Shown piece after piece: positions 38,272 through 63,615 of a DNA stretch of 64,000 nt. The first letter of the stretch is position 1; each line of letters starts with the position of its first letter. A program made the position numbers and the translations under genes. Origin of the DNA: Candidatus Kapaibacterium sp. (GTDB lineage: Bacteria; Bacteroidota; Ignavibacteria; Kapaibacteriales; UBA7675); the NCBI GenBank assembly GCA_028284775.1, contig JANQRB010000044.1, positions 65,342 through 129,341 of the forward strand. The letters are read 5' to 3'. The notes under the pieces were generated by a model, which did not search any database, was not told where the DNA came from, and saw nothing but the letters and a program-made list of their open reading frames with translations.

Positions 38272-38759
38272 GATCTGTAGCTACTTAAGCGGTGAAGCGG
38301 GAAAGATCAATTGTATTCGAACAAACTCAGGTCTAACGTAACACTATCATCATTCCCTGTTGAAGCTGCTGCTTAGCAAAGTTGTCTGGAACACACTGTC
38401 TTGCAGAAGGCAACATATGGCTGATTTCACACCAATGCCAGGTTGACTGTGTTTGACCGATTCTGAAATCGGGAAATCCATTTCAAACCACATCCATGTT
38501 AGAATCGGCACACTTATGTAGTATATGAGTACAGATATACACTAAAGATTGCTTTTGAATCTGCGCGATTCTACCTTAAAACTACTGCCCGATCCTCACA
38601 ATTTGCTACTACGGCACAACGCTGCCATGTATCCCCGTGAGTGAGTTGTTTTTGATCGATAACACAGATTAAACATTGGGAGCGGTATCGTTTTTTTGGA
38701 AGCGCAGCCATGCCGTACACCTGAGTATTAAGACTTTGCCACGCTAATTGGAGTCTGTT

Positions 38760-44073: not shown

Positions 44074-44423
44074 AGTTCCTCTCAAGTTCAATTTGAGCTT
44101 AGAAAAAGAGCTGTGCACGTAAGCTTGCCGGAAGATTCTTGAGGATTCGCCAATGTAGGATGTTTCATGCTTTTCTCCAACTTTGGCTGACTGCCGGCGG
44201 CTAGTTTGAAAGCGACGCAGTCTTAATCTACAATGGACCAGTCTGTTCAAGGGTAGTCTCCCGGATCCGGATGTAGGCAGACGGACCGGGCTTTGGCATT
44301 TGATTTCTGCAGCACTTTCCGATTGCGAACTTCTTTAAGGCGGTGATTGCAACAATTATTGCGATTCTACGACCTTTGAACGGACCGACATCATAATACA
44401 CTCAATCAAAATGGCAGGACACT

Positions 44424-45812
44424 ATGACGGAATTGCTGCAGGACCTCCAATCGATCGAATTGTTCAGCAAGCTACCGCCGGAACAACTGAAGTGGCTCGT
44501 GGAAAAGTCGGAATTGCGCGGATTTGATGTGGGGGATATCATGTTCAATATCGGCGATCCGATCGACAACATGGGAGTGATCCTGGAGGGAGCATTTGCG
44601 CTTAAATTCAAGCAGGGCGATCAATTCAAGGAGTTCGCGCAATCAGAAAAGGGCAGCATCACCGGCAAGCTGCCATATTCGCGCGCTAAAGTAGCGTCGG
44701 CCCTGGCCGTGGCGATTGAGCCGGCGCGGGTGCTCATTATGCACGAACGCCATCTGCCGGAGATGATCCGCAGTCAGCACGAAATGACCGAAGCCCTGGT
44801 TCACACGATGCTGACGCGCATCCGCGACTTCACTAAGTCGCAGCAGATGAACGAAAAGCTGATGGCTCTCGGCAAACTTTCGGCCGGATTGGCGCACGAG
44901 CTGAATAATCCTTCGTCAGCAGTCGTCCGCAGCGCCGGCGAGCTCAAAAAGCACCTGGCATTGGTACCGGAAAAATTCAAGCGCGTGATTTCCATCCGGC
45001 TGGACAACAGCCAAATCGACATCCTGAACCGGATTTTGTTCAGCAGAGTTCAGCAAGGCATCGCTGAGGGCATGAGCCTGATGGAGCGCAGTGAACGCGA
45101 AGAAGAGCTTACAGACTGGTTGGATGATCATGAGGTTGACAATTCCGACGGCATCGCAGAGACCCTGACGGATTTTGCTTTTAATACCGACGATCTCGAG
45201 GCGATTCGCGAAGCGACAACTGATGAGTATCTCGACGACGCCGTTGCCTGGCTGGAAGACGTCCTCACAACCGAAAAGCTGGTGCAGGAAATTCAAGACG
45301 CCTCGAAACGCATCGCCGACCTTGTAAAATCCGTCAAAACCTACACTCACATGGATCAGGCACCCGACAAACAGAAGATCGACATTCGCAAGGGAATCGA
45401 AAGCACGCTGGTCATGCTGAATCACAAGGCGCGGCGAAAGAACATCACCTTGCAATGCGAGCTGCCGGATGATTTGCCTCTCATCAACGCCTTTCCCAGC
45501 GAGCTGAACCAGGTATGGACCAACCTGATCGACAATGCCATCGATGCGGTGGATCAGGACGGCACCCTTACGCTGCGCGCGCGCCGGGAACGCGAATTCG
45601 TGATGATAGACATCATCGACGATGGCAAGGGTATTCCGGAAGAAATTCAATCACGGATCTTCGAACCGTTTTTCACGACGAAACCGCAGGGACAGGGCAC
45701 CGGCCTGGGGCTCGACATTGTCCAGCGTATCATACAGCATCACAATGCCGATATCAAAGTTGAATCACAGCCGGGAGAGACGAAATTCAAATTGTGCTTT
45801 CCGATGGAGTAG
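44424..45812 (+). CDS. Orphan histidine kinase with N-terminal cyclic-nucleotide-binding (cNMP/CAP-effector) domain
   Basis: ATG 44424 (GGCAGGA 5 nt upstream). cNMP-binding-like N-terminus (FSKLPPEQLKWLVEKSELRGFDVGDIMFNIGDP...). HisKA H-box LSAGLAHELNNPSSAV. HATPase N/G1/G2 boxes (LIDNAIDAV, DDGKGIP, GTGLGLDIV). No adjacent response regulator. Confidence 0.85.
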   Translation: MTELLQDLQSIELFSKLPPEQLKWLVEKSELRGFDVGDIMFNIGDPIDNMGVILEGAFALKFKQGDQFKEFAQSEKGSITGKLPYSRAKVASALAVAIEPARVLIMHERHLPEMIRSQHEMTEALVHTMLTRIRDFTKSQQMNEKLMALGKLSAGLAHELNNPSSAVVRSAGELKKHLALVPEKFKRVISIRLDNSQIDILNRILFSRVQQGIAEGMSLMERSEREEELTDWLDDHEVDNSDGIAETLTDFAFNTDDLEAIREATTDEYLDDAVAWLEDVLTTEKLVQEIQDASKRIADLVKSVKTYTHMDQAPDKQKIDIRKGIESTLVMLNHKARRKNITLQCELPDDLPLINAFPSELNQVWTNLIDNAIDAVDQDGTLTLRARREREFVMIDIIDDGKGIPEEIQSRIFEPFFTTKPQGQGTGLGLDIVQRIIQHHNADIKVESQPGETKFKLCFPME

Positions 45813-47339
45813 GGCAGGTTTTTTTGATTAAGAATTAAGCTTATGCTGCACAGAAGGCAACATCAAAACGCCGGGATCCAGGTGGCATCACGGCCGGAAT
45901 TAACACCTTAATTGTTTTGCTTTTCGATGGGATGATAAGTAGACATGGAGGAGTCCTCCGTCTGCTGTCATACGCGCCACTATAATTGCAGACAAGGGCC
46001 AGAAGAGAAATTTGCAAAATCAGGCTAAAGCAAACTGTAAGGTAAACGGATAGGCTTACGGTCATTCACTATCGAGCGCCGCTCGCCATCGGTAGCATGC
46101 TTGTCGATCCTGATTGACTTCGCGGTGACAGGACGTTAAAGTGACCGTTAGCCTGGTTGAACAGCCCGTTGAGTATTTTTGTCGTATAGCGGATGTTTTC
46201 ACGGCGGTTTGAAGGACAAGTATTTGTATTGTTGTAGCAAATCCGTACGGGGTTTAGCAATCGAGACTGAATGTTTAGTGCAGTGGTGCTGATTAATGGG
46301 TGAGTTGGCGGTGCTGTGGTATGGCTTGGTCTGGCTGCGGATTTCTGGAGGTGGTGGAGGGGAGGCACGCCGCAGGCGAGGTTTATGTGAGGAGATCTGT
46401 TAATTCGACAACTATTATTACGACACTCAGCCTAAAATCCTCAGCCCCTCACAAGTTCACCATCTCACACACCACTCCACCAGACCATCCATACAATCTT
46501 CCCACCCGCCCGTCCTGCGACCAGAAACGTAGCCGCGGTCAATGATCGGCAGCACATTTCTTGTGAAAATGCGTTTAAGACACCGGCGATCAACCATACT
46601 ATCGGCCGACATCGTCAGATCTTCCTACAAGAGCTCCGCAGTGTATACTCCCTAAGCCGGACCTTCCCGCTCAACATTTTACTACTGCTCGGCCAAATAG
46701 AGCGACATAGTTGGACTCATTTGCATAACAACTCTCTCATGAAATGCATCCGACTCATGGCGGATATCGATACGCGGTTCTTCTGCAAAAATAATTTCGC
46801 AGAGGCAGTCCCATGGGCCAAACCCATGTCTCTGCCCCGCAACTCGAATCACCGCAATTCACTGCGGTCAATGTTTTGCGGCCGAACTGTAACACTGACG
46901 CGGCTTCTGTATCATTATGCCGCTTCGAATGCTGGCGACGATGCACTCCAAGAGAATAATCTATGGATCTCCGGTGTCGATTTATGAGTACTTTTGCGGC
47001 AGTGCCCCACTCTCAGGTCGGAGCCGTTCAAACGATTTCCGGCGCTCAATTGGAAGAGGATGCACTCGGAATTTCCGGGACAGCTGCTCCCGCTGATATT
47101 GCCGGTGGAATTCAACGGCAGATAAGTCCGAGACAAATGTGCTACCCGCGATTCAAAACCGCGGCGCTCATCCGGCTGTCGGAAGGAACTGGCAAGGTAG
47201 GGGCAGAACTTGCCGAATCGTTGACAAGAACGACATTCGCAAAATTGTGTTCAAATTCTATGCGTCTGGCGGTAAGCTGATTTGTGACAAAGCCTAATCA
47301 CGAGGGCACCTGCCGCTTTTAGACAATTCTAGGTATGCT

Positions 47340-50300: not shown

Positions 50301-50432
50301 AGTGACAGACTGCCGGCAGCGGCTGGAAACCTTCGTTTCACTTTCGTAACTGCCGGCCTGGCCTCCGGCACATATTATCTGCGACTGACCTCCGGAACTT
50401 TTGTCCTGCTACGAGTTATGCAGGTTAAATAG
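47340..50432 (+). CDS. SBBP beta-propeller repeat protein (DUF7948-like N-terminus) with T9SS C-terminal sorting domain
   Basis: ATG 47340. Signal ...LRRLPLLLVVLLALHQLQAQ. SBBP-type repeats (DIYVAGYTASDDFPVTPGSY; NAYVTGSTSSDEYFPLRNAF; NIYVAGSSESDDFPTTDN...). C-terminus LDIQPNPVGDAATIQARIS...GTYYLRLTSGTFVLLRVMQVK matches the T9SS CTD. Confidence 0.85.
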   Translation: MRGKISQFLHAMAPPADTKGSTLRRLPLLLVVLLALHQLQAQEFVANVGQWPEQVLFRTHACQPELWITEQGFVTDLRNEKLGSAAAMHYSFVAGRFQSAEGQQPLPGRYNYLQGDRVRGLSPRYRRVLLRNVYPDIDMVWYFEEGKARYDLLVHPGANPSSIRMNITGAATAGVTLAGDLQLASEAGTLQQRGLRAYQLDANRNQLEIKCCFKIDESRSPITVAFECGDYDKKRTLVIDPLVYSSYLGGADRDEILAMSIDSQGYTYVAGVTNSAQFPTVPGSYDTDGKGDRSAFVSKLSQDGSTLIWSTFLGGGADDQANAIALGPDNDVFVAGMTKSTDFPSTARFGRELERSIAFVARLSADGGSLRYGVLFGGEKDDVISAVTVDPSGNAYVTGSTSSDEYFPLRNAFDSDYNGGIDAFLLALNPAGDALLFASYLGGNGHDAGQDVSLSAEGSVILCGNTESENFPATVGTPINDSDAFLAVFDPDGSRRLIRLFGGEKDDVPLALIEGKDKDIYVAGYTASDDFPVTPGSYGQNPVGKDDAFVARIDRAGEILFARRLGGIERDYATAIDLDKSGGIFLSGATESSSFPISDNAPWPDWRGGRDAFVAHLHPDSSALLFATFIGGSDDDEAVAVAVDDQSNIYVAGSSESDDFPTTDNVLLPLFQQDRDGFITKFSIDAVARRPLLRVSAADLDFGTVSLGEKLVERVAISNVGNAPALLQKLSFSDNDENAFSDIFGSELPITIEPGTEYSAAFGFHPLSEGPKTAALTISGTANPILLRLKGSATEDDGSRDSAIVALPALEAASGDTVLLPLRILRIPASFDQRSATGFRAEFHFNASLLTPLDPALRGQINDGRQHIVIEGVYLGGSSNDVLAELPMICGLGDAEQSELILDCSSIRWEVDGSTIDQANVCRDGSFRLTDIWRFREDRLVNSNKGNLALDIQPNPVGDAATIQARISSAPAHLRLHDALGRPLIDLSDRLPAAAGNLRFTFVTAGLASGTYYLRLTSGTFVLLRVMQVK

Positions 50433-51322
50433 CGGCATTGCATTAATGGCATACGGCGAAGTCCTATCACGCCAAGCGTCATGAATTTGAATTGATGCCA
50501 AGAACAGGCAGCGGTGAATCACCGTTTCATTATCATCAGAATGAACGAAATATCGTTGACAGCGGTACAATGAAGATTGTGGCGGTCTTTAACAATCTTG
50601 CCGCACTTCCATTCCTGAACCGTGTTCTTCACAATGTCGTCGGATCACTGTTTTCAAACCGACCTGCTTTGTTAAAGTCAGAGATCATTCGAAAGAGTTT
50701 ATCTTCTAGCAGTGGCAAATCGGTTTTTTTGTTGTTTCCAGCTTGTTAAGCTCCTTCTTCCCAACAATGTCGATTAACAGCACAAGTCTCGCCAATGTCG
50801 GAGCAGGCAGCAATATAGCCATTCTCTAGGTCGGCAGCAGCATAGTCGTGTTTGAAGCAAGGGCCTTCCGGTCGATATCAGCGGCTGCGCCACGGCATGT
50901 CCCGTCGCACATGGCCTTATAAGCTTCCATAGAATCAGCTATGAACTGCGGACGCCAAGCATCCTGAGCTTGAGGCCCGAGTTAAATTCTGCCGACGGGC
51001 ATCGACAAGGTGACCTCGTCACTTTAGAAAGGTACATTTGCCCCGGCTTTAGGGAATTTTGCAATCGAAGGGAAAGGCGACAGGCGGGCAGTCAGGGAGG
51101 TAAGAACATCATTATCAGCTTAACTCTTAGTGGTGCTTGCGGCGGCATCTACATCCAATCCTAGCTTAAGATCGTCGTTCGACGTCGCCGGCGTTCTATC
51201 CGATGGAATGCTGCGGATTCACTATCGACGGTCGTAGAAAAACTTAAAAGTAAGGGCCTCTTGATCATCGCCGGACCAGCCGCTCTTCGGCCGGAGAACA
51301 TAAGTGTACGAGTTGTTTCCCT

Positions 51323-51859
51323 TCAGCTGGCGGGAAAGCGAATTGTCAGCTCCTCCCGTCCGGCGGCATAACTCGCAGGATAACGACGCAGATCGCTCGT
51401 TACCAGTGGCGAATCGCGCCAGCCGCCGTCGCTGGAAGAGAATTCAGCCCCGTGGCATGGGCATATCATATTGGCGCCGGGTTCGGCCGGCAAATTTACT
51501 TCACAAACCTGGTGCGTACAAAGGGCGGTGACGACCAGAAATTCGCTTTCACTCTTCCGGATGATAATCAATCGCCGGCCGTCGTTAAAGGGTGGTATTG
51601 CGATTTTGATTGCACCGCCAACCGATCCTAGTGCCGGATAGTCACTCAGGAGCAGCGTCGCAGCAGCATCCGGCTGAAGGGCATCGCCGGTAGATGGCCC
51701 GACGATCTTAACGACACGCGGTTCACACGAAGACAGGAGCTGGCCGAGCGCTCCACTGCAACATGCAGTACAGCAAAGCGTTCCTGCGCTGCGCAGAAAC
51801 TCCCGTCGTTGCTGCCTGCGTCTTGCTTGTACCTTTTTCGATTTAGCATTCGTTTGCAT
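51323..51859 (-). CDS. Rieske [2Fe-2S] domain protein with twin-arginine (Tat) signal
   Basis: ATG 51859 with GGAG SD 8 nt upstream. Tat-type motif RRRQQRREFLRSAGTL. Rieske cluster ligands CTHQVCEV ... CPCHGAEF (CxH...CxxH). Confidence 0.85.
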   Translation of the reverse strand: MQTNAKSKKVQARRRQQRREFLRSAGTLCCTACCSGALGQLLSSCEPRVVKIVGPSTGDALQPDAAATLLLSDYPALGSVGGAIKIAIPPFNDGRRLIIIRKSESEFLVVTALCTHQVCEVNLPAEPGANMICPCHGAEFSSSDGGWRDSPLVTSDLRRYPASYAAGREELTIRFPAS

Positions 51860-52115
51860 CGCCTGACTCCGGAACCGTTAAACACTTATTCGCCCGATAA
51901 CTCTGCTCAGCAAGGGTGATACATTTACGGGACGAATGTTACAGGCACACGCTGCAAGTCTCGTCCCTGCCTGAATGTTCGCCTTTTCCCAACGACGGGA
52001 TGTAATGAAGGCGGTCTTCAAAATACCGAGTCGGTCCAGACCCTTAACGCTTGTCGGCAAGTGCAGCAATCATATTTTTTGCAACGAAGATTGCAGTTTG
52101 AGTATTTTTGGTTCT

Positions 52116-54266
52116 ATGTGTCCAAGGTTAAGCACCGCCGTCCTCAGCTGCATCTTTCTTACTTTCAACCTGCTTGACGCCGCCGGCACCGACAGCAGCG
52201 CCCTTTCCTGGCGATACAGCCTGAGCGCTGCCCTGAGCTACAGCAGCCACTCGCCCGCGTTCGGGACTTTCGTGGACGAAGGCATCGAGCTGCCCGCAGA
52301 AGCAGGGATCTTCGATTCGGGCGATGATACGGGCCTCGGTCTATTCTTCGATGGCGCCGCTCAGCTGCATGACCGCCTCTGGCTGGGCTTGGCGCTTGAC
52401 TTTCGCAATGCCGACGGCGACATAAGTACGACCGAAGAAAAGACCTATATCATCCAGGGTGTGCCCACCAGTGGTGTTAACAATCACACTGTCTCATTTA
52501 CAATCCGTTCACTCGGCCTGACGCCCAGTCTGAGTTATGATTTACCCGGCAGCTTGTACCTGCGTGCCGGTCTGCGTCTGGCCTTTGTTATCGACGCTCC
52601 CTTCACACAACGTGAAACGATTCAATCACCGGAGGGGCTTGAATTCCCCAACGGCAGTTCACGACGCGTGCTGAGCGAGGCATCCGCCGGTTTTGATGAT
52701 GTTCAGATTCCCGGCGTCGCCGCTTTGCTGGGGCTGGGTGTTCATCTGCCGCTTAATGAAGCTGGCTCCTTGGGCCTACGGGGGGAGATGCACTATCAGA
52801 CCGATCTGACGAGTATCACCCACGATGTTGAATGGAAGGCTGCCACGCTGGCCCTGGCTTTGGGTATCACAATAACGCCGACTACCTCCATACCTGTCCT
52901 GCGCGACACCATCATCATGCGTGATACTATAATCGACAGGCGCGCCGACATCGAAACGGAGATAACACGGCTGGAAGAGCGAAACAGCAGCACCGAACGT
53001 AAGACGAGCGCCGAGCACATCCGCGAGACCCTGCGCATCACGGAACGCTATCGGCGCAGCGAGCCGAAAAAACCGCCGCTGCTCCTGCCTTCACTGAAGC
53101 TTCGCTTTGCGCTGCCTGATGGTAGTGAAGCGGAAGCGGTAGCCTTGCAGATTCGCCGCCGCCGGGAGAAATTTCGCGCACCGCTGCTGCCATACATCTT
53201 TTTCGCGGAAGGTTCCGATAGCCTGCCACAGCGGTATCGCTCCCAGGGAACCGCCTCGCCCGATGAATTCACCGAGTCTGATCTGGATAGGGTATCGCTG
53301 CCGGGCATGTACCGGGAGCTGCTGAACATCGTTGGCAGTCGATTGCGTCAACGCCCCGGAGCTACCCTCGTCATAACGGGTTGCAATGACGGCGGCCTTT
53401 CTGAAGCAGGCGACAGCGCTTTGTCGCAAAGGCGGGCGGCAGCAGTCCGTGACTTTTTGCGGGATCACTGGCAGATCAACCCCGAGCGCATGCCGCTCCG
53501 GTCGCGCCTGCTGCCGGAACGAGCTTCCTCCTTGCGCCATGCCAGCGGACGCGCCGAAAACCGTCGCGCCGAGCTCAGCTCTGATGATTCCGCCATCCTG
53601 GCTCCGGTTCGTCTGCAGCTAACGAGCTTCGAAGCGAATCCACCCGAGCTTCTATTGTACCCGGAGGTACTGACTACATCACTGTTGAGCCATTGGTCGA
53701 TTGCAGTGACCGCGGGCGATGCGTCGACGCGTCTGATACAACGCTGGGAAGGTGTCGGCAGCTTACCCCCGCTCCTGCGCTGGTCGATCGCTGAGGACAG
53801 CAGCGCCATGCGGCTTGTCCAGGGTGAGGAGCGCATGCAAAGCTTTCTCACGGTACAGGATACAGCGGGTTTCATCGCCATTAGTGACACGGGCAGCATT
53901 CGCTTTCGCCATTCGCAGCGCGACGTCGCGGCGGACGTCGAATTACGGGAGCGCTATTCGCTCCTGTTTTTTGGCTTCGACGATGCGGACCTCAGAACCG
54001 ACCAGCAGGATTATCTGCAAAGCATTCGGCCGGCGTTGCTGCAGGCAGACAGCATAGTAATCAGCGGTACGACGGACAACAGCGGCAGTGTATCTTACAA
54101 TCGGGCTCTTGCTCTGCAACGCGCAGAGAATGTCGCCGACTTGCTCGGTCTGCCGTCCTCGATACCGGTCAGCATCAAGGCGGCAAACGGCAGTCTGTCC
54201 AATGAGCTGCCTGAGGGACGCTGCTATAATCGCAGTGTGAGTATCCTGGTCGACCGAGGCGACTGA
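52116..54266 (+). CDS. Outer-membrane protein with two C-terminal OmpA-like domains
   Basis: Start tentatively at ATG 52116 (MCPRLSTAVLSCIFLTFNLLDAAG, signal-like). The track start 51975 adds 47 residues without a signal peptide. Two OmpA_C-like segments (GRAENRRAELS ; NRALALQRAENVADLL...GRCYNRSVSILV). Confidence 0.7.
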   Translation: MCPRLSTAVLSCIFLTFNLLDAAGTDSSALSWRYSLSAALSYSSHSPAFGTFVDEGIELPAEAGIFDSGDDTGLGLFFDGAAQLHDRLWLGLALDFRNADGDISTTEEKTYIIQGVPTSGVNNHTVSFTIRSLGLTPSLSYDLPGSLYLRAGLRLAFVIDAPFTQRETIQSPEGLEFPNGSSRRVLSEASAGFDDVQIPGVAALLGLGVHLPLNEAGSLGLRGEMHYQTDLTSITHDVEWKAATLALALGITITPTTSIPVLRDTIIMRDTIIDRRADIETEITRLEERNSSTERKTSAEHIRETLRITERYRRSEPKKPPLLLPSLKLRFALPDGSEAEAVALQIRRRREKFRAPLLPYIFFAEGSDSLPQRYRSQGTASPDEFTESDLDRVSLPGMYRELLNIVGSRLRQRPGATLVITGCNDGGLSEAGDSALSQRRAAAVRDFLRDHWQINPERMPLRSRLLPERASSLRHASGRAENRRAELSSDDSAILAPVRLQLTSFEANPPELLLYPEVLTTSLLSHWSIAVTAGDASTRLIQRWEGVGSLPPLLRWSIAEDSSAMRLVQGEERMQSFLTVQDTAGFIAISDTGSIRFRHSQRDVAADVELRERYSLLFFGFDDADLRTDQQDYLQSIRPALLQADSIVISGTTDNSGSVSYNRALALQRAENVADLLGLPSSIPVSIKAANGSLSNELPEGRCYNRSVSILVDRGD

Positions 54267-54276
54267 TTGTCAAGGC

Positions 54277-55272
54277 TCAATCTTTAAGATGCTGCAGTCG
54301 TGCGATCCAGTATTGTTCTTTGTCGCTGCCGGCGGCACGCAGGGCAGCCAGAGACCGCGACTTCAGTTGCAGCGCATCGGCCCGACGACCTTCCTGACCG
54401 GCGCCGAATGCCAATTCTCCCAATAGCTCGCCCTGTAGCTCCCGCCATTGGCCTGATTCCGCCAAAGCAAGCGCGCGTTTCAGTATGCTGCGACTGCTAT
54501 CCGGGTGGCCGAGCTGACGGTGAGCAACGCCAATCTGGCGCAGGCTGCGAACCCGATCCGCCGAGCCGGGCGGCGGCAGGTGCTCCCAGAGACCTAGAAT
54601 GACTTCTTCGATCTTCTGCGCTTTCGCTCCACCGCTTTCCACAAAGCCGTGCATTCGCTGTGATGCGTCGGAGGCCGATTTTGGCACTGTGTTTGCGTTG
54701 CGGGAACTGTCTGTTTGCGCCGCTTCTGCATCCGAAGGCGTCGGTACGTCGGGGATCTGACGCTCCGGCTCGACGGCTGACGGGCTGGGGGCCGGTACCG
54801 CCGCGGGCTGCGAATGTGAAATCGCCTCATCGACGGACTCCGTTTGATGGAAAGAACTGAAATTCTCCGACGGTGTCGCGGTCTGGTCATCACGCGTGGC
54901 GACCGGAAGAGGCGTCTTCTCCGTTGGAGCCGGCAGGACGTCACCAGCGGCGCCGGTATCATCGCCGGGTGCGAGCCATAGCAGCGAGCTGAGAATTATC
55001 ACACCCGCGCCGGCAAACCACAGCCAGAGCGGAGGCCGCCGCCGCTGGATCTGCAGTGCTGCCCGAATGCTTTCTTTAGTCGCAGCGCGATAATCAAGGG
55101 CGCGCGCGTCGCGGGACTGCTGTTCCGCCGTCAGGATTGTTTCCAGTCGCTGAAGGTCATGCAGTTCCTCAGCCAGAGAGCTGTCGTGCATCAGCAAGGC
55201 ATCGAGCTCGGCCTGCTCGGCGGGACTGAGGCTGCCGTCCAAAGCTTTAGCGATTAATTCATCATGTCTCAT
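54277..55272 (-). CDS. Membrane-anchored anti-sigma factor (putative), single TM, periplasmic C-terminal helical domain
   Basis: ATGA start/stop overlap with the upstream ECF sigma gene (55269-55272). N-terminus MRHDELIAKALDGSLSPAEQAELDALL resembles an anti-sigma N-domain. TM helix LWLWFAGAGVIILSSLLWLA. Pro/Ala-rich linker, then a helical C-terminus. Confidence 0.6.
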   Translation of the reverse strand: MRHDELIAKALDGSLSPAEQAELDALLMHDSSLAEELHDLQRLETILTAEQQSRDARALDYRAATKESIRAALQIQRRRPPLWLWFAGAGVIILSSLLWLAPGDDTGAAGDVLPAPTEKTPLPVATRDDQTATPSENFSSFHQTESVDEAISHSQPAAVPAPSPSAVEPERQIPDVPTPSDAEAAQTDSSRNANTVPKSASDASQRMHGFVESGGAKAQKIEEVILGLWEHLPPPGSADRVRSLRQIGVAHRQLGHPDSSRSILKRALALAESGQWRELQGELLGELAFGAGQEGRRADALQLKSRSLAALRAAGSDKEQYWIARLQHLKD

Positions 55273-55826
55273 TCTTCATCTGATAAATAGGGTTGCAGAC
55301 TTGTACGAAGCATTTTCTTGGCGCGATGGATGCGCACTTTCACGAGCGCCATCGAAATATCGAGCCGCTGCGCTATTTCGTGATAGGCAAAGCCATCCCT
55401 GTATTTTAACTCGAAAGCAGCGCGGAACTCCTCCGGGAGTGCGGCGATCGCTTTGTTCAAAGCTTCAGCGAAAAAAATATCCTTATCCGGTCCTCTCTCC
55501 GGAGCCGCGAGTGCATAGCCCGCGTCATCGATGTCGGTCGTCTGCAATTGGTTGCGTACCGACAGCAGACAGTTGTTCCGCGCGATGGTAAACATCCAGC
55601 CGGCAAAGTTGCCTCCCTTGAATTGTTCCGCTTTCTGAAACACCGTCATCAAGGTCGATTGATAGATATCTTCGGCAACCTGCCGGTTCTTCGTCGCTGC
55701 CAGACAGTAGGCATACAACCGCCGATCATAACGCCGGTACAACTCGTCGAAAGCAGCCTCATCCCTCTGTTGTATAAGGGTCAGGAGCGCTTCGTCTGTC
55801 TGACACTGGTACGCCGCTTTGTTCAT
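55269..55826 (-). CDS. ECF-subfamily RNA polymerase sigma-70 factor
   Basis: 185 aa. Region-2-like YRRYDRRLYAYCLAATKNRQVAEDIYQSTLMTVF and a region-4 HTH near the C-terminus (FAYHEIAQRLDISMALVKVRIHRAKKMLR). Confidence 0.85.
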   Translation of the reverse strand: MNKAAYQCQTDEALLTLIQQRDEAAFDELYRRYDRRLYAYCLAATKNRQVAEDIYQSTLMTVFQKAEQFKGGNFAGWMFTIARNNCLLSVRNQLQTTDIDDAGYALAAPERGPDKDIFFAEALNKAIAALPEEFRAAFELKYRDGFAYHEIAQRLDISMALVKVRIHRAKKMLRTSLQPYLSDEE

Positions 55827-55894
55827 TCTTCGCAGTCCGTTTCATTGCTTCGGGGGCAGGAATACACAATATCGGCAATTGTTACAAGGGTATT

Positions 55895-56069
55895 CTTGTG
55901 GATTGAGATTATTTAGGATTGGTCGGGGGTGGTTTGTGGGGCGACCACGGGGGACACGGAGGCACGGGGGACACTTCAGTTGGCGGGCTCTTGTGGATGG
56001 AGATTATTCAGGATTGGTCGGAGGTGGTTTGTGGGGCGACCACGGGGGACACGGAGGCACGGGGGACAT
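55895..56069 (+). repeat. Tandem direct repeat: two ~80-bp G-tract-rich units with 95-bp period in the sigma/heme-cluster divergent intergenic region
   Basis: Unit 1 is 55895-55974 (cttgtggattgagattatttaggattggtcgggggtggtttgtggggcgaccacgggggacacggaggcacgggggacac). Unit 2 is 55990-56069, differing at ~4 positions, with a 15-bp spacer. Each unit has G5/G4/G5/G5 tracts. GGATTGG occurs in each unit and again at ~56141. Confidence 0.9.
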
Positions 56070-56273
56070 TTTAGCGGCTGCGGCTTTGGGTGAAGATGGC
56101 GGTTGCCTGTTAAGAAAAATGGGCGGGACTGTAACAATCGGATTGGATTTACATTCCTGGCGCAAGTTTTATTATTGCTTCGGCGGAATTAACAAATAGC
56201 ATCGCGTGGAGTATTGTGAAGGGTGCTATGTCGGCGGCGGCAATTTTTTCGGATTATTCGGATGCAAAGTTGT

Positions 56274-57518
56274 ATGATTAAACAACAGACCATCAAGGCG
56301 CTGGCATTAAGTCTGGCGATCGTGCTCCTGCCGCACTGCAGTTCAGACGAGGACGGCGGTAGTCCGAGCTCTCCTTCCCTGGAAGATGCCGTGATAATTG
56401 ATCCCGCGGATGCTGCGATCGCGATAGGTGAGCAGCTTCAACTACAGGCCCGGCATGCAGGCGCAGCGGTTGAAGTTCATTGGAAGGTGGCGCAAGGGCC
56501 GGGCAGCATCGACGACAGCGGCGTCTACAGCGCGCCCGCGAGCCTGACGGTTCGTTCGGTAACCGCCACCATTCGGGCCACGATGCAGCGTGACGAGTCG
56601 ATTCGCGGCTTTGCGCAGATTGTCGTCAGCACTAACGAACCCGACCCAAATGACGATCCCGGTACAACGGTCTCCCTGGCAGTACAGCCTGAGTCGGCCG
56701 CGCTCAATCTTAACGAAGAGCTGCAGTGCCAGGCATTTTTCAACGGCCAGCCTGCAAGCGGCGTTTCCTGGGCAGTGACGGAAGGGCCCGGAACGGTCGA
56801 TGCCAATGGACTCTACCGCGCGCCATCCTCAATTGACGCGTCAAAGCTGCGCGCCCTCATCGAGGTCCGTAGCGCGGGATCGCCGCCACTCACGCGCAGC
56901 GTAGAAGTTCAAGTATACAACTACATGCCCGGCACGGTCTGTTTTCAGCGCGACGTGATGCCGATGCTCTTGTCGAACTGCGCTATGAGCGGCTGTCACG
57001 ACGCCAAGACACATGCCGATGGCATAGACCTCTCCAGTTATGAAGCGATGATGCGCTCGCATGAAACGGTACGGCCGTACAATGCGGGAGACAGTGAACT
57101 CTACGAGTCGATCACCGACTTCGGCGATGACGACCTGATGCCGCCGCCGCCCCGCGATCCGTTGTCAAAAGAGCAGATTGCACTGGTCCGACGCTGGATC
57201 AATGAAGGCGCCCCGGACTCGGATTGCGCTCCGCCGGACGGCAGCAACTGCGATACGGTCGATGTCGGCTTCCGTTCTACCATTCAGCCTCTGATGCAAA
57301 GCTATTGCGTCGGCTGCCACAGCAATGCCGCGCCGGCAGACAATCTTGCTCTGGAAAGCTACGAACAGGTCCGCAACTCAGCTCGCGATGGCGGCCTCCT
57401 GGGATCGATCGTCCACGATCCGGCTTACAAAGCCATGCCGTCAAAGGATCTGAAGCTGAACGACTGCCAGATCAAACAGATCCGGGTCTGGATTGCTGCC
57501 GGTACACCGGATAACTAA
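56274..57518 (+). CDS. Lipoprotein with two Ig-like (Big_2-type) domains and two PSCyt1-type (Planctomycete cytochrome c) c-heme-binding modules
   Basis: Start tentatively at ATG 56274 (MIKQQTIKALALSLAIVLLPHCSS); the track start is GTG 56223. Module 1 is FQRDVMPMLLSNCAMSGCHDAK...LMPPPP...WINEGAP (C-x4-CH). Module 2 is FRSTIQPLMQSYCVGCHSNAAP...AMPS...WIAAGTP (canonical CxxCH). Both follow the PSCyt1 pattern F..V.P.L...C..CH...MPP...WI..G. Confidence 0.75.
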   Translation: MIKQQTIKALALSLAIVLLPHCSSDEDGGSPSSPSLEDAVIIDPADAAIAIGEQLQLQARHAGAAVEVHWKVAQGPGSIDDSGVYSAPASLTVRSVTATIRATMQRDESIRGFAQIVVSTNEPDPNDDPGTTVSLAVQPESAALNLNEELQCQAFFNGQPASGVSWAVTEGPGTVDANGLYRAPSSIDASKLRALIEVRSAGSPPLTRSVEVQVYNYMPGTVCFQRDVMPMLLSNCAMSGCHDAKTHADGIDLSSYEAMMRSHETVRPYNAGDSELYESITDFGDDDLMPPPPRDPLSKEQIALVRRWINEGAPDSDCAPPDGSNCDTVDVGFRSTIQPLMQSYCVGCHSNAAPADNLALESYEQVRNSARDGGLLGSIVHDPAYKAMPSKDLKLNDCQIKQIRVWIAAGTPDN

Positions 57519-57753
57519 ATCCTGTCCGCTTCCGCAAGAAGATAATCTCTCTTCGTTTGTCCGTTCCCCCCGACACTTCTTTGCCCGGGCAAAGAATGGC
57601 GTCGGGGGTCGTTTTTTCGGCAATAATTGGCCGGAAGAAAAAATTCATTCCCAGATTGGTCGGGATTGATGAACTTTGCGGTCAGAAAGACCTCCGGCAA
57701 GGACTAGTGCTCAATCGTTCAGTACTATTCACCAGAAAGGAGAAGTTGCGACC

Positions 57754-58281
57754 GTGAAATCCAACAAAGCAGGCAACTGGAGACGATGGATACTTTGGGG
57801 ACTGCTGGCGCTCGTCATTGTCATTCAGCTGATTCCGGTGGAACGCGGTAATCCGCCCGTTGAAACGACCATCGGTGCACCCGAGGCCGTAATGGCTATT
57901 CTGCGCAGCGCCTGTTACGACTGTCATTCCAATGAATCGCATTGGCCCTGGTACAGTTATGTTGCGCCTGTTTCCTGGCTTATTGCGCACGATGTGGAGG
58001 AAGGCCGCGAGCATCTCAACTTTTCGACCTGGAACCGATTCAGCGACAAAGACCGCGTTGAGCTGCGCGAGGAGATATGGGAGGAAGTCGAAGAGGGCGA
58101 AATGCCGCTCGCAATTTATTTGCCATTGCACCCCGAAGCCGAGCTGAGTGAGAGCCAGAAAGCCACGTTACGCAGTTGGGCTCTCGGCAGCGCACACAGT
58201 GGCAACCGGGACGCGCGTCTGGAGCCGAGCCAGGCCCGCAGCGGCGAGGAGCATCAAGACGCAAGCCATGAAACACATTAA
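57754..58281 (+). CDS. Membrane-anchored Haem_bd (PF14376-like) heme-binding domain protein
   Basis: GTG 57754 with AAAGGAGAAG SD ~8 nt upstream (the track ORF starts at TTG 57676). N-terminal TM WRRWILWGLLALVIVIQLIPV. CYDCHSNESHWPWYSYVAPVSWLIAHDVEEGREHLNFSTW matches the Haem_bd signature, including CxxCH. Confidence 0.7.
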   Translation: MKSNKAGNWRRWILWGLLALVIVIQLIPVERGNPPVETTIGAPEAVMAILRSACYDCHSNESHWPWYSYVAPVSWLIAHDVEEGREHLNFSTWNRFSDKDRVELREEIWEEVEEGEMPLAIYLPLHPEAELSESQKATLRSWALGSAHSGNRDARLEPSQARSGEEHQDASHETH

Positions 58282-58401
58282 AAAACACTAGACTTTCGGA
58301 AGGCTTAAGGCCGTTCGGCCCAGGGCCCCTACGGCAAGCTCGAAGATCGTGTTTACCGGTCGCGAAAGGACCGGCATAATTTTCAGGAAAGGATTGTAAC
58401 G

Positions 58402-60063
58402 ATGAAAAAGCCGCTGATAGTTGCACTTGACGACGACCCGCAGGTGCTCAGAGCGATCCGACGCGATCTACGCAATGAATACCGCGAAGAGTATCGCATA
58501 CTTTCCACGACCTCGGCGCGGGAAGCATTGGAGTCCTTGAAAGAGTTGAAGCTGCGTGGCGAGAAAATCGCGCTTTTCATTTCCGACCAGCGGATGCCAG
58601 AAATGGAGGGCGTCGACTATCTGGAGCGGGCCAAGGAGATTTTCCCCGAGGCGCGGCGCGTGCTCCTGACGGCATATTCCGATACGGAAGCGGCCATTAA
58701 AGCGATCAATGACGTGCAGCTCGACTACTATCTGATGAAACCCTGGGATCCGCCGGAAGAAAAATTGTACCCTGTGCTGAACGACCTGCTCGACGAATGG
58801 CAGGCGAGCTACCGGCCGGACTTCGAAGGCATCAAAATCGTAGGCTATCAGTGGTCGCCGCGCTCGCATGGCATTAAGGACTTTCTGGCGGGCAACCTGA
58901 TTCCTTACCTTTGGCTGGATATCGAATCGAATGAGGAAGCACGCCGCTTGATCGACGCTGCCGGCGTGGCGCATAAAGAGTTGCCGGCGGTGTTTTTCGA
59001 GGACGGCAGCCACATGGAGAATCCCACAGCAACCCGGATCGCCGCAAAAATTGGCATGAATGCCCACGCTTCCGACACGATGTACGACGTCGTGATTGTT
59101 GGCGCCGGCCCGGCGGGTCTGGCTGCGGCCGTTTATGGCGCATCGGAAGGCCTCAAAACGCTGCTGGTGGAAAAGCGGGCGCCGGGCGGGCAGGCGGGCA
59201 CAAGTTCGCGCATCGAAAATTACCTCGGCTTCCCGAAAGGTCTGAGCGGCTCGCAGCTCACGCAACGCGCCATCACCCAGGCCACTCGACTGGGGGCGGA
59301 GTTCCTGCTGCCGCAGGAAGTCAAAAGCATCAGCCTGCGCGATAAATACAAAATCATTACACTCGCCGACGGTGCTGAGATCCACGCGCTCAGCGTCATC
59401 ACGACTACAGGCGTGGACTACCGCAAGCTCGCGACCAAGGGCATTGCTGATTTCACCGGGGCGGGCGTTTATTACGGCGCGGCGACGACGGAGGCGGCAG
59501 CCTGCCGCGATAAGGACGTCTATATCGTCGGCGGCGGCAACTCGGCCGGACAGGCTGCCATGTATCTCTCGACATTCGCCAGCAATGTCTACATTCTTAT
59601 CCGCCGCGACTCGTTGAAACACTCGATGTCGCAGTACCTTATAGACCAGATTGCCGGCACAGCCAATATCGTGCTGCAGCCGCATACGGTGGTAGAAGAA
59701 GCTATCGGCAACGGCAACCTGAGCGCCCTGGTGCTGAAAGACCTGAATAGCAATGAATGCCGCAGGGTAGAGGCGGGCTCGCTCTTCATCTTTATCGGCG
59801 CACGCCCCTATACCGAGTGGCTGGAAGCCGATATCATCAAGAATCAGCGCGGCTTTATCGAAACTGGACGCGACCTGATCCGGCATCCGGACTTTAAGAA
59901 AGTCTGGAAACTCGATCGCGAGCCTTTCCTGCTGGAATCGAGCTCGCCCGGCCTCTTTGCCGCCGGCGACGTGCGCGCCGGCGCCATGAACCGCGTCGCT
60001 TCGGCCGTCGGCGAAGGATCGATGGCCATCAAATTTGTCCACGAGTACCTGGCTCAGCTCTGA
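58402..60063 (+). CDS. Response-regulator receiver (REC) domain fused to a thioredoxin-reductase-fold FAD/NAD(P)H flavoprotein that lacks the CxxC redox centre
   Basis: ATG 58402 with AAAGGA SD. REC has LDDD (res 9-12), phosphoacceptor Asp in FISDQRMPEMEG, T in VLLTAY and K in YYLMKPW. The C-terminal ~330 aa have TrxB-like Rossmann motifs (VVIVGAGPAGLAAAVY ; YIVGGGNSAGQAAMYL). TrxB 'CATC' aligns to AATTEAAAC, so there is no CxxC. Confidence 0.85.
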   Translation: MKKPLIVALDDDPQVLRAIRRDLRNEYREEYRILSTTSAREALESLKELKLRGEKIALFISDQRMPEMEGVDYLERAKEIFPEARRVLLTAYSDTEAAIKAINDVQLDYYLMKPWDPPEEKLYPVLNDLLDEWQASYRPDFEGIKIVGYQWSPRSHGIKDFLAGNLIPYLWLDIESNEEARRLIDAAGVAHKELPAVFFEDGSHMENPTATRIAAKIGMNAHASDTMYDVVIVGAGPAGLAAAVYGASEGLKTLLVEKRAPGGQAGTSSRIENYLGFPKGLSGSQLTQRAITQATRLGAEFLLPQEVKSISLRDKYKIITLADGAEIHALSVITTTGVDYRKLATKGIADFTGAGVYYGAATTEAAACRDKDVYIVGGGNSAGQAAMYLSTFASNVYILIRRDSLKHSMSQYLIDQIAGTANIVLQPHTVVEEAIGNGNLSALVLKDLNSNECRRVEAGSLFIFIGARPYTEWLEADIIKNQRGFIETGRDLIRHPDFKKVWKLDREPFLLESSSPGLFAAGDVRAGAMNRVASAVGEGSMAIKFVHEYLAQL

Positions 60064-60723
60064 CTACGTGCGGCCATCAGCAAGTGTCGGCAGACGCGGC
60101 CGTTAGCCCGCCCGCTTCGCAGATTTCGCAATATCTCACCCATACCGACATGGCCGGCGACGGTATTTTGCGGCCGTAGGAAAGAAATGCGAAAGCGGAC
60201 ACCGTCACTGGCGAAATGCGCGCCACCGCCGAAATAATACCAGGGAAAGACGGCATTATCAAGATCGGCGATCTTCCAGTCGAAGAGTGTCACATGGTGA
60301 TTTTGCCGCAGCCGGTCTGCCACGTCGGGCAGAGCGCACATTCGCTCGATGCGCCGCAGATGCCGCCGGCTAAGCGCGCCGCAGCCCCGCGCCGTAAAGG
60401 CGATGCGCCCGTTGGCAATCCGCAGGCTGCCGGAGGTGCTGCCCGACAAACCCACCAGCAGCCAGGCCTCGCACAGTAAGGATTGTTTTGATTCGTTGTA
60501 TCTGCTTTGCGCCATTGCCGTTTCGCTCCATAAGCCGAAAATCTCACAAATTTAGCATTATTTTGTGCGGATCGCAGCTGGGAGACCGACCGACCGGATG
60601 GCGGTGATACCAGAAGCCTGCGCCAGTGTCTCGTGCAGTCCTAATTGATCGGGGCAGCAGGTTGAACTCAATCTCAAGCTTTCAATAACTCTTCACGGAT
60701 AAATAAAACAGAAGGACGTCAAT

Positions 60724-61164
60724 ATGTCAATCTTGCAAAAAATGATTCATCCTCTGGGGGCCGGTTCGCGGGGGCTGTTCAGCGATCTGGGCTTACTGCT
60801 GCTGCGGCTCTTCTTCGGAGGGATTATGTTGTTCGGCCACGGCTGGGGAAAGCTGACGGGTTTTGGCCAGATCGCCGGCGGTTTCCCTGATCCCCTCGGC
60901 GTAGGCAGTACTCTTTCCCTGAGCCTGACGGTGTTTGCGGAGTTCTTTTGTTCCTTGGCACTGATTTTCGGCTTCATGACACGGCTCGCCTCGCTACCGC
61001 TGATAGTGACAATGCTGGTCGCCGTCTTTGTCATTCACATCGACGATCCTTTCGGCAAGCAGGAATTGGCCTTACTCTACCTGGGCGCCTACTTTACTCT
61101 GTTTCTGGCCGGTCCCGGACGCTTTGCAGTGGATGCTCGGCTTTCCGACAAAAACGCTGCCTGA
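60724..61164 (+). CDS. DoxX-family membrane protein
   Basis: ATG 60724 with GAAGGA SD 8 nt upstream. 146 aa, 4 predicted TM segments. LLLLRLFFGGIMLFGHGWGKL is typical of DoxX. Confidence 0.75.
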   Translation: MSILQKMIHPLGAGSRGLFSDLGLLLLRLFFGGIMLFGHGWGKLTGFGQIAGGFPDPLGVGSTLSLSLTVFAEFFCSLALIFGFMTRLASLPLIVTMLVAVFVIHIDDPFGKQELALLYLGAYFTLFLAGPGRFAVDARLSDKNAA

Positions 61165-61442: not shown

Positions 61443-63410
61443 TTACGATGCTTCGATTATCTCGATCACGACCGTACGGTTGTAAAAGCGGCCTTCCGGC
61501 AAACTGTTGTCGAACAGCGGACGGGTGCCGTCTTCGCCGAAGCCGACGCTCTCGATCTTAACCCTGCGACCGAGTTTGCGCAATTCATCGCGCAGGACAT
61601 CGGCGGTTTCGCGGGCGCGTTTTTGCGACAAACGAAAATTGCCGTCGGCATCGCCAACATTGTCCGTGTAGCCGTGGATAATGACTTTTTGCCCTTGCTG
61701 GGTCTGAGCCGCCACGACATTGCGCAGGAAGCGATCGTAGGTCTTGACGGCGTCTTTCTGTCCGTATTCAAACACGATCGAATAACGGCGGGCTCCTTCT
61801 CCGGTGTCGGCACGCACGACCAAATCGAATTCGCGCCGTTCCCGCAGCACCTGGTCGTCATTGGTCGTCACAATGACTTCCGCCGTATAGCGCCCCTGTT
61901 CGATATCTTTCATCAGGTCGCCGGGATTAATACGTTGCGACGCGCGCCGAAAAGGCCCGAAATTGAAGTTGCGACCTTCGCCTTCCAGCTTAACCTGCCA
62001 TGACTTGATGCCGCCGCCTTCGTCAACCGCAAGCACCAGATCGTTATCGATCGGATTGTTTTGCACAAGACGCATACGGACAGGCTGCAGCAGAATATCG
62101 TTGTTGGTCACAAACTCGACGCGCCGGTTTTCTTCATCCACCAGCGGGCGGTCTTCTTTCGGCGTGCCGGCCGAGCCAGATGGACGCCGGGGAAGCTTTT
62201 GACTCTTGATCGAAATACGATCCGGGTCGATGCCGAAGGAGTTAGTCAGATAGGATTTGACGTTTTCGGCCAGAATGTGACCGTCGTCCTTGTCACCGCC
62301 GGAGCCGATCAGGGTAACTTTCTGCTCGGGGTTATCACGCATACGGGCGCCAATAATATTCATCACATTGTAATAGGTATTCATCTGGCGCTGAGAACGC
62401 TGGCGCTCCGTCAGATTGCCGATCTCATCTTCATCGAGCAGATCGTTCTCCGAAAAGTCGCCGGCATCACCCTGGTCGAGTTGCACATAGCGTCCCGGAA
62501 TGGCCGTGCTGTTGCTGTCGAAAAAGACATTCGCCACCAGGGGGAAGTATTCTTCCACTTTACGGGAGCGAATAATGCCGCCGGTAGGTGTCAGCAGCGA
62601 AAGGTTGATAAGTGGATTGGAGGCATCGATTTCCACCAGCTCCACCGGCGGAGCGGCACCGAACATAAAATGAACGCCCGCGCGCAGGGTCACCGTACTC
62701 CAGATGTCGTCGATCGAATTCTGGTCGAGATCTTCGAAGCTTGTTCCACGCTGATTAACCATCCACGAGCCTTCCAGATAGGGCGTCAGATAGAACCAGG
62801 TTTCCTCGCGGCGGTCATTGAGCAGAATGTCATAGCCGACGCCCGCCGAAATGCCGAGCGTCAGCGACGACAGTTCGGGAAACTCCACTCCTGTGGCCGT
62901 GGCCGGACCGTCTTTGTCCGGTTTATAATCATATTCGCCTGTCAGGTTGATGCCAATCAGCGGGCCGGCGGTAAAATGCAGACCGGGCGTGATTTCCGGA
63001 TAGATACGCAGAAGAGGCTCAATGGTAAAATAGCTGAAGTTGGCGTCGAATTCCTTCTCCGGCGTGAAGCTGGCATCATTGACGACCGCATTGCGCATAT
63101 CATAGCTGAGCCGGAGCTGCGCCCCCCACCAGGAATCGGAATTGTACTCGGCCAGCAGACCGCCGTAAAGACCGACACCGCTGCCGTCATTTACTTCGAG
63201 CGGGATGAAGTTACCGATTGATGTATTGCCCGGCGGCGCCAGGTTCTGGTAGCCGGCACCGGCGAAGTTCAGGTTGAGTCCCGCATTAAGACCGAATTTC
63301 CAGATCGGCTGCCGGTATTCATCCTGCGCCGACCCAGGTGAGCTCAGCGCAAAAAAGGCAATGAGAAGTATTCGTAATACTGTTCCACGGCCAAGGGTAC
63401 CATTCGTCAT
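61443..63410 (-). CDS. Outer-membrane beta-barrel protein with two C-terminal OmpA-like domains
   Basis: The track start 63416 is GTG. ATG 63410 (plus 'cat' 63408-63410) with GGAGA SD 9 nt upstream, giving signal peptide MTNGTLGRGTVLRILLIAFFALSSPGSAQ. OmpA_C segments (...ENRRVEFVTNN ; IIHGYTDNVGDADGNFRLSQKRARETADVL...GRFYNRTVVIEI). Paralogous in architecture to 52116..54266. Confidence 0.85.
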   Translation of the reverse strand: MTNGTLGRGTVLRILLIAFFALSSPGSAQDEYRQPIWKFGLNAGLNLNFAGAGYQNLAPPGNTSIGNFIPLEVNDGSGVGLYGGLLAEYNSDSWWGAQLRLSYDMRNAVVNDASFTPEKEFDANFSYFTIEPLLRIYPEITPGLHFTAGPLIGINLTGEYDYKPDKDGPATATGVEFPELSSLTLGISAGVGYDILLNDRREETWFYLTPYLEGSWMVNQRGTSFEDLDQNSIDDIWSTVTLRAGVHFMFGAAPPVELVEIDASNPLINLSLLTPTGGIIRSRKVEEYFPLVANVFFDSNSTAIPGRYVQLDQGDAGDFSENDLLDEDEIGNLTERQRSQRQMNTYYNVMNIIGARMRDNPEQKVTLIGSGGDKDDGHILAENVKSYLTNSFGIDPDRISIKSQKLPRRPSGSAGTPKEDRPLVDEENRRVEFVTNNDILLQPVRMRLVQNNPIDNDLVLAVDEGGGIKSWQVKLEGEGRNFNFGPFRRASQRINPGDLMKDIEQGRYTAEVIVTTNDDQVLRERREFDLVVRADTGEGARRYSIVFEYGQKDAVKTYDRFLRNVVAAQTQQGQKVIIHGYTDNVGDADGNFRLSQKRARETADVLRDELRKLGRRVKIESVGFGEDGTRPLFDNSLPEGRFYNRTVVIEIIEAS

Positions 63411-63615
63411 TGACACGCTCTCCAGGATTTTTGAGTATGATGTTGGTATAGCTTCTGCTTGTTTGATTTGTAGCGGGAAATCTTCAGGGGATTCGGCCCG
63501 CTTTTTCCGCTATCGTTGTCGGCACATCATCGATAGCTTCGGCGAGCCACAATTACAGACAGGTCGCTTCAATGTTGGTATATCTTACAAAACTAGTGGT
63601 TTTTTTATCACCATG

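Follow-up and report, generated by a model that had tools for sequence, protein, structure and literature searches.

The interval analysed here, positions 54277–61164 of a stretch of 64,000 nucleotides from Candidatus Kapaibacterium sp. (contig JANQRB010000044.1; the whole stretch is referred to below as the window), carries on its minus strand an operon for an extracytoplasmic function (ECF) sigma factor and a putative anti-sigma factor. Across a divergent region of 450 bp, this operon faces the plus-strand genes for a di-heme lipoprotein, a Haem_bd mono-heme protein, a flavoprotein with an N-terminal REC domain and a DoxX-family protein. The first-pass annotation, made from the sequence before any database was searched, joined the ECF pair and these four genes into a single envelope redox-signalling module. 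The four co-directional genes do exist, but a minus-strand gene lying among them, here called ORF153, had been omitted, and the results described below favour a different picture: the interval probably consists of five or six independent transcription units found together only in this lineage, with a functional link between the ECF operon and the gene of the di-heme lipoprotein.

The sigma factor gene (55269..55826, minus strand) encodes a protein of 185 amino acid residues matching Sigma70_r2 (47.5 bits), Sigma70_r4_2 (52.1 bits) and Sigma70_ECF above the cut-offs, as well as TIGR02937 (82 bits, cut-off 42.9). It possesses the sigma2 and sigma4 regions alone, within the ~180–200 residues characteristic of the group IV (ECF) sigma-70 factors. 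As the first-pass annotation had described, its stop codon overlaps—as ATGA, within GAAGAATGAGACATG—the start of the next open reading frame (ORF), located at 54277..55272 of the same strand. The product of the latter is plausibly an anti-sigma factor. When its sequence is read by eye, one hydrophobic segment can be recognised at about residues 82–103, preceded by N-terminal, presumably cytoplasmic helices resembling an anti-sigma domain without the zinc ligands, and followed by a linker rich in Pro, Ala and Ser and a TPR-like C-terminus. The single-pass topology claimed earlier agrees with the one hydrophobic segment read from the sequence, but the assignment to the anti-sigma factors found no counterpart among the families searched: the ORF matched no Pfam family and no anti-sigma hidden Markov model (HMM), only TPR_12 appearing below its cut-off.

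Concerning the divergent region, the promoter-like motif TGTAACAAT-N14-ATTCCTG is present in two exact copies, one at 55857..55886 on the minus strand, 30 nt before the start codon of the sigma gene, and the other at 56130..56159 on the plus strand, ~100 nt before the start of the lipoprotein gene. When both strands of the region are read, both copies face outward, each toward its own gene. A third copy with one mismatch (50588..50617, plus strand) is located in a stretch of 900 bp (50433–51322) without a convincing ORF. These three sites in the 64-kb window compare with 0.04 expected from shuffles of the same window (n=100), of which none (0/100) contained three or more. The conservation is bipartite, the 14-nt spacer being fixed in length and not conserved in sequence in all three copies, which argues for recognition by a sigma factor rather than for terminal inverted repeats. 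The geometry is also ECF-like, and we infer that the motif would act as an ECF-type promoter for both the sigma operon and the lipoprotein gene; a common motif before a sigma operon and one neighbouring predicted target is the pattern of an ECF regulon with a local target. Scans of the window with the motif found no copy upstream of the genes for Haem_bd, the flavoprotein, ORF153 or DoxX. The earlier claim that the ECF pair controls the divergent operon can therefore be retained for its first gene, that of the lipoprotein, which has the identical motif, but not for the three remaining ones.

Exactly between the two divergent motif copies there is a tandem repeat (55894..56074, or 55894–56068 when counted as 1.8 copies) comprising 1.8–1.9 copies of a 95-bp unit with 96% matches, in agreement with the period reported at first reading. 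Each unit contains CACGGGGGACAC twice, 17 nt apart, which gives four in total, and the repeat is strongly G-rich on the plus strand (GC skew of 0.25 for 56000–56499). The core of the repeat does not occur elsewhere within the 64-kb window. The CACGGGGGACAC copies could, from their sequence, be binding sites of a regulator or DNA prone to forming G-quadruplexes. With regard to the third motif copy, a transcript starting there would run antisense into the gene of a Rieske protein (51323–51859, minus strand). A small RNA located 3' of this copy was considered and rejected, the hairpin with a U-run found ~100 nt downstream folding no better than shuffled sequences.

The lipoprotein gene occupies 56262/56274..57518 on the plus strand, the database copy of the protein (P0121) starting at 56262. 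The AlphaFold2 model, based on an alignment of 23 sequences (predicted local distance difference test, pLDDT, of 78.5), contains two beta domains (residues 41–119 and 135–215) and two helical modules (residues 224–310 and 333–408), its closest match in the PDB being the tandem Big_2 domains of LigA. The first helical module was recognised as PSCyt1 (PF07635; 43.2 bits, cut-off 22) and the second one as Cytochrome_CBB3 (27.6 bits, cut-off 27). The protein had originally been described as having two Ig-like domains and two PSCyt1-type heme modules; the two beta domains and one PSCyt1 are indeed present, but the second module belongs to a different family and the first heme site is not a CxxCH. 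It is a C-x4-CH (C-AMSG-CH; positions 56979–56999 of the window, residues 236–242), invariant in 23/23 members of the family, where it follows the pattern C-A/T-x-S-G-C-H. The second site, CVGCH, is a canonical CxxCH. In the same 23-sequence alignment, the invariant residues include C22, C236/C241/H242, M289, C345/C348/H349 and M388. M388 is the distal methionine of the second module and M289 is likely to be the distal ligand at the first heme site. With its heme motifs, distal methionines and lipoprotein signal, the protein fits the description of a c-type cytochrome with two His/Met modules, to which the hemes would be expected to be attached. The lipid-modified cysteine is followed by the acidic residues SSDED, resembling the surface-lipoprotein export signal of the Bacteroidota. 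At 57567..57620 on the plus strand, 50 nt after the stop codon of the gene, an intrinsic-terminator-like hairpin with a U-run is present; its stem-loop (57567–57608), succeeded by UCGUUUUUU, has a minimum free energy of −29.6 kcal/mol (z = −3.1), 0/200 shuffles being as stable.

There are 53 homologues of the lipoprotein, most of them being lipoproteins of ~230 residues that match the C-terminal di-heme unit, so that standalone PSCyt1-type di-heme proteins are common rather than unusual. The neighbourhoods could be inspected at six independent loci anchored on this protein (L082, L083, L086, L088, L170 and L171). They exhibit a cluster consisting of the di-heme protein, its mono-heme paralogue of ~130 residues, a tRNA_anti-like OB-fold protein, a YceI protein and a DUF5777 protein; YceI was seen in 6/6 loci, and the OB-fold protein and DUF5777 in most of them. 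No YceI, DUF5777, OB-fold protein, mono-heme paralogue or zf-UBP protein was detected in the window by tblastn, phmmer and a custom HMM for the partners, and no characterisation of the di-heme/YceI/DUF5777 cluster was found in the literature searched. An ECF gene upstream of the cluster is found at only one of the six loci, L082. The sigma factor encoded there shares only 25% identity with that of the window, and the protein of 463 residues encoded downstream of it is unrelated to the window anti-sigma factor, with which it could not be aligned; the L082 pair therefore provides no orthologous support for that of the window. It may be mentioned that the cytochrome cluster of L082 ends with a Rieske gene, the product of which is not significantly similar to the Rieske protein of the window (E 0.009).

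The Haem_bd gene (57754..58281, plus strand) encodes a mono-heme protein of 175 residues with a transmembrane anchor. Its start is most likely the GTG at 57754, preceded by a GGAG-type ribosome-binding site, as in the database copy P0174. The match to PF14376 (150.4 bits, cut-off 27) and the heme motif CYDCH leave the earlier description of an anchored CxxCH protein intact. More than 7700 homologues, 55–69% identical to the window protein, are spread over many phyla, and nearly all of them are standalone proteins of 134–207 residues; a standalone Haem_bd is therefore the norm. The view, expressed in the first-pass annotation, of PSCyt1 and Haem_bd as modules best known embedded in very large proteins is thus to be corrected in that standalone forms of both are common. 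Among the 80 metagenome loci anchored on Haem_bd (~40/80 with a flank of at least 1.5 kb), no family recurs as a neighbour in more than eight. ECF genes were observed near Haem_bd at five loci, versus 1.3 expected from their density at the flavoprotein loci (P about 0.012), an enrichment that is marginal, two of the five loci being near-duplicates and the taxa differing from those of the flavoprotein comparison set. No strong independent promoter of the Haem_bd gene was found, nor was any characterisation of the protein in the literature searched.

The third plus-strand gene (58402..60063) encodes a response regulator composed of a REC domain, a glutaredoxin-like domain without cysteines and a flavoprotein of the thioredoxin reductase (TrxR) fold. 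Pfam recognises Response_reg (PF00072, 55 bits) and Pyr_redox_2, and the receiver residues D10–D12, D62, T90 and K113 are invariant in an alignment of 17 members. The middle domain (residues 144–217) is similar to the glutaredoxin family TIGR02200, with SP[KR]SH at the position of the CPYC. The REC domain and the TrxR fold proposed at first reading were thus found, but the additional glutaredoxin-like domain had escaped notice, and the CxxC of the thioredoxin reductases is missing, GAATTE standing in its place in 17/17 aligned sequences, in which there is no invariant cysteine at all. The protein matches the TrxRs of the PDB with an E-value of 1e-47; its score with TIGR01292 is 226 bits, below the cut-off of 343. 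With the CxxC replaced, no invariant cysteine and a score below the cut-off, the flavoprotein is therefore not a thioredoxin reductase. The 120 bp preceding its gene contain a hairpin, weaker than that following the lipoprotein gene, and a sigma-70-like site. The family is large (at least 8000 matches) and strongly conserved, being 65–72% identical across metagenome-assembled genomes (MAGs) of the Bacteroidota, Balneolales, Ignavibacteria-type bacteria and Dadabacteria/Thermodesulfobacteriota.

The neighbourhood of the flavoprotein gene was followed at 80 genome loci, the best 80 of 596, mostly from Bacteroidota and with flanks of up to 10 kb. Its partner there is a histidine kinase of 460–500 residues with cNMP_binding (cyclic nucleotide-binding), HisKA and HATPase_c domains, encoded directly upstream of the flavoprotein at 66 of the 75 loci that have enough flank, and one small gene away at four more. 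The five remaining loci, among them one MAG of the Thermochlorobacteriaceae and one of Kapaibacterium, lack an adjacent kinase. A zf-UBP protein of ~90 residues is present in 41/80 loci, immediately downstream in 39, and the complete genome of a Balneola has the order zf-UBP, kinase, flavoprotein. In the window this arrangement is split and incomplete: the zf-UBP gene is absent, and the gene of the orthologous kinase (44424..45812, plus strand; Pfam cNMP_binding and HATPase_c), which is 53% identical to the flavoprotein-adjacent kinase of Fulvivirga, is located 12.6 kb upstream of the flavoprotein gene. The flavoprotein is, by sequence relationship, the predicted response regulator of this kinase, its conserved sensor, and its place next to Haem_bd would therefore reflect a lineage-specific rearrangement. 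No flanking repeats and no mobile genes were found between kinase and regulator as marks of an insertion. The stretch 45813–47339, directly 3' of the kinase gene—the position occupied by the response-regulator gene in most other genomes—is 1.5 kb long, with no ORF of more than 105 residues and no Rfam match; Rfam families were not found anywhere at 40–64 kb of the window.

ORF153 (60054..60515, minus strand; 153 residues) has 193 homologues, 68 of them at E ≤ 1e-10, mostly 140–150 residues in length and aligned over nearly the full length, with the conserved motif FPWYYFGGG...R.SFLRP. It has no match in Pfam or the PDB and represents an unannotated family; judged from these relatives, it is a real gene. 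Its orientation is convergent to that of the flavoprotein gene, the 3' ends overlapping by 10 bp, and divergent from that of the DoxX gene (60724..61164, plus strand; PF07681, 66 bits, cut-off 23.6), which had been correctly identified from the beginning and is probably a transcription unit of its own. Between the plus-strand genes there are gaps of 235 bp (lipoprotein to Haem_bd), 120 bp (Haem_bd to flavoprotein) and 660 bp (flavoprotein to DoxX).

Searches with profile HMMs, which the first-pass annotation itself had recommended, thus supported all five domains named—PSCyt1, Haem_bd, REC, Pyr_redox_2 and DoxX. The second check it had proposed, that of conservation of the gene string in other genomes, had a different outcome, the proposed genes never occurring together in the 166 anchored loci. 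At the flavoprotein loci, neither Haem_bd nor a PSCyt1 lipoprotein, DoxX or ORF153 was found within 10 kb (0/80); at the Haem_bd loci the flavoprotein was not found (0/80), DoxX was present once, 6 kb away (1/80), and a PSCyt-type protein also once (1/80), this one, at L129, being a typical large PSCyt1/PSD1 protein. None of the six di-heme loci contained Haem_bd, the flavoprotein, DoxX or ORF153 (0/6). A string never seen in related genomes had been named in advance as the sign of a chance juxtaposition, and since the genes are never together elsewhere, the module as a whole fails by its own test.

The model that unites the ECF pair with all four plus-strand genes in a single redox-sensing module of the envelope is accordingly highly improbable. 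All its parts are related to redox reactions or to the envelope and lie inside 7 kb, a PSCyt1-type protein adjoins Haem_bd in L129, and ECF pairs are seen in a few Haem_bd loci (L152, L157/158 and L162). Set against these points are not only the absence of co-occurrence just described, but also the terminator-like hairpin, the large gaps and the opposite-strand gene that break the string, as well as the confinement of the promoter motif to the first of the four genes. The flavoprotein, moreover, has a conserved sensor kinase that is a different protein and is encoded in the window, so that nothing calls for connecting it with the heme proteins; the proposal that the latter signal through the phosphorylatable flavoprotein gives way to one with the cyclic nucleotide-binding kinase as its partner. 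A more modest version places the lipoprotein gene under the sigma factor and lets part of the transcription pass the terminator, so as to include Haem_bd and the flavoprotein gene at its new location. Such a recruitment, recent and local as opposed to a conserved system, appears unlikely, albeit less so. The three genes share one direction and are separated by modest gaps, Haem_bd lacks a strong promoter of its own in the scans made, and a mild enrichment of ECF genes is seen around Haem_bd in other genomes; the strong hairpin and U-run after the lipoprotein gene, the second hairpin and the sigma-70-like site before the flavoprotein gene, and the lack of any support from conservation speak against it. 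If the ECF pair of this poorly sampled lineage had indeed recruited the di-heme lipoprotein with its unusual conserved C-x4-CH heme site, possibly surface-exposed, and via read-through Haem_bd and the REC-flavoprotein, the result would be a new envelope-to-cytoplasm redox circuit, through which a heme signal from outside the cytoplasm would reach a flavoenzyme controlled by phosphorylation; such a circuit is regarded as a long shot.

The link between the ECF operon and the lipoprotein gene could be questioned from the opposite side, namely if the motif were not a promoter and its inverted copies marked the borders of a small element, mobile or duplicated, or were bound by another regulator, in which case there would be no such link. 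The exact copies do lie in inverted orientation on either side of 243 bp that include the tandem repeat, and the third copy stands in a non-coding stretch that is not followed by a gene. This explanation is nevertheless very unlikely, given that a bipartite pattern with a fixed, non-conserved spacer typically reflects −35/−10 recognition, terminal inverted repeats looking different, that the exact copies point outward at promoter-like distances, that the repeat core is found nowhere else in the window, and that neither a transposase nor a target duplication was seen. The favoured interpretation—separate units with a linked ECF operon and lipoprotein gene—has its own weak points, which should be pointed out together. 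The promoter assignment is based on the similarity of two sites and on their geometry, the −10-like ATTC is atypical in comparison with the usual CGT/CGA, and the third copy has no obvious gene to serve. Read-through of the terminator into Haem_bd and the flavoprotein gene may occur. The ECF pair of L082, taken with the mild enrichment of ECF genes near Haem_bd, makes a looser association between ECF factors and heme proteins possible. Finally, the flavoprotein loci are a best-matching, mostly Bacteroidota sample with limited flanks, and close relatives of the source organism were absent from the databases, the best matches being 72% identical for the flavoprotein and 41% for the lipoprotein.

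Based on the above results, the following course of events may be envisaged for the separate units. The anti-sigma factor, translationally coupled to the sigma gene and with a cytoplasmic N-terminus, one transmembrane segment and a periplasmic TPR-like domain, would hold the sigma factor until an envelope cue acts on the periplasmic part. Once released, the sigma factor would initiate transcription at the two TGTAACAAT-N14-ATTCCTG promoters, one serving its own operon and the other the lipoprotein gene, the latter as a monocistronic unit whose transcript would end at the strong terminator-like hairpin. The lipoprotein would be exported and lipid-anchored, carrying two c-type hemes with His/Met ligation on a stalk built from the two Ig-like domains, and, with such hemes on such a stalk, it would most likely serve electron transfer in the envelope or protection in redox reactions there. 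The Haem_bd gene is a ubiquitous free-standing gene with a membrane-anchored mono-heme product, and the flavoprotein would be a non-disulfide NAD(P)H/FAD enzyme, its activity presumably switched by phosphorylation of Asp62. ORF153 and DoxX would be separate units.

As for the surroundings, the interval is flanked by the gene of the above-mentioned Rieske protein (51323–51859, minus strand), which has 178 residues and a Tat signal, and by the genes of two OmpA-domain proteins, one of 763 residues (51975–54266, plus strand) and one of 657 residues (61443–63416, minus strand). Further upstream, 38748–41597, 41953–44250 and 47340–50432 encode large secreted proteins with C-terminal sorting domains of the type IX secretion system and with SBBP, BNR/sortilin and DUF7948 repeats. 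These sorting domains, together with best matches mainly to Bacteroidota, Balneolales and Ignavibacteria-type bacteria, indicate an organism of the FCB group.

The main consequence of the analysis is that a chance juxtaposition is kept from being recorded as a new signalling system, but three modest leads emerge from it. One is a concrete candidate for an ECF promoter motif, the single predicted target of which is the Big_2/di-heme lipoprotein. Another is the family of small cytochromes with an invariant C-x4-CH heme site, normally encoded alongside YceI and DUF5777. The last is the widespread and strongly conserved cassette of kinase, REC-flavoprotein and zf-UBP protein, the enzymatic output of which, judging from the missing CxxC, cannot be the reduction of thioredoxin.

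Compared with the systems already described, the DoxX protein is a generic member of the DoxX/DoxD family, sharing PF07681 with it, but having neither a partner of the thiosulfate:quinone oxidoreductase (TQO) type nor a link to its neighbours. The flavoprotein shares the TrxR fold and the FAD and NAD(P)H motifs with the low-Mr TrxRs and the TrxR-type ferredoxin-NADP+ reductases, from which it differs by the absence of the CxxC, by its Cys-less glutaredoxin-like domain and by its kinase and zf-UBP partners. With its N-terminal REC domain retaining all phospho-acceptor residues, it is similar to the REC-TrxR response regulators listed in censuses of two-component systems (PMC5847659), that mention being the only one found in the literature searched, where no characterisation of such a regulator was encountered. 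The lipoprotein has PSCyt1 in common with the giant PSCyt1-PSD1-DUF1549/DUF1553 proteins of Planctomycetes and Verrucomicrobia; unlike these, it is a small lipoprotein without PSD1, DUF1549 and DUF1553, its heme motif bearing a 2-residue insertion. Its closest counterparts are the small di-heme PSCyt1-type lipoproteins of Bacteroidota, 40–49% identical to its C-terminal 195 residues and sharing with it the lipobox cysteine, the C-x4-CH, the CxxCH and both distal methionines. The differences consist in the two additional Big_2 domains, which only 2/53 homologues possess, and in the region around the gene, which lacks the mono-heme paralogue, the OB-fold protein, YceI and DUF5777 of the Bacteroidota clusters.

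The nearest parallel to the ECF operon is offered by the group ECF16. Its promoter, (T/C)GTAAC-N17-CGAA, stands in Brucella (BcrS/AbcS) and Bradyrhizobium (EcfF/OsrA) before the sigma operon, which is autoregulated, and again before a neighbouring target operon (PMC8315932, PMC3420878). Similarly, the window contains a two-domain sigma factor, apparently co-transcribed with a putative membrane anti-sigma factor, and the −35 element TGTAAC, followed by a spacer of 17 nt, before both the sigma operon and the neighbouring gene of a probable envelope redox protein. The −10-like element is, however, ATTC instead of CGAA, and the predicted target is a di-heme lipoprotein. ECF16, represented by SigF/NrsF and BcrS/AbcS, is defined by an anti-sigma factor with six transmembrane segments and DUF1109 (PMC8315932), whereas that of the window has a single hydrophobic segment, a TPR-like periplasmic domain and no match to DUF1109, so that membership of the pair in ECF16 was ruled out. 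The one functional link that finds support, that of an ECF sigma factor to a single neighbouring target gene, follows the standard ECF pattern, and every part of the interval belongs to a known family.

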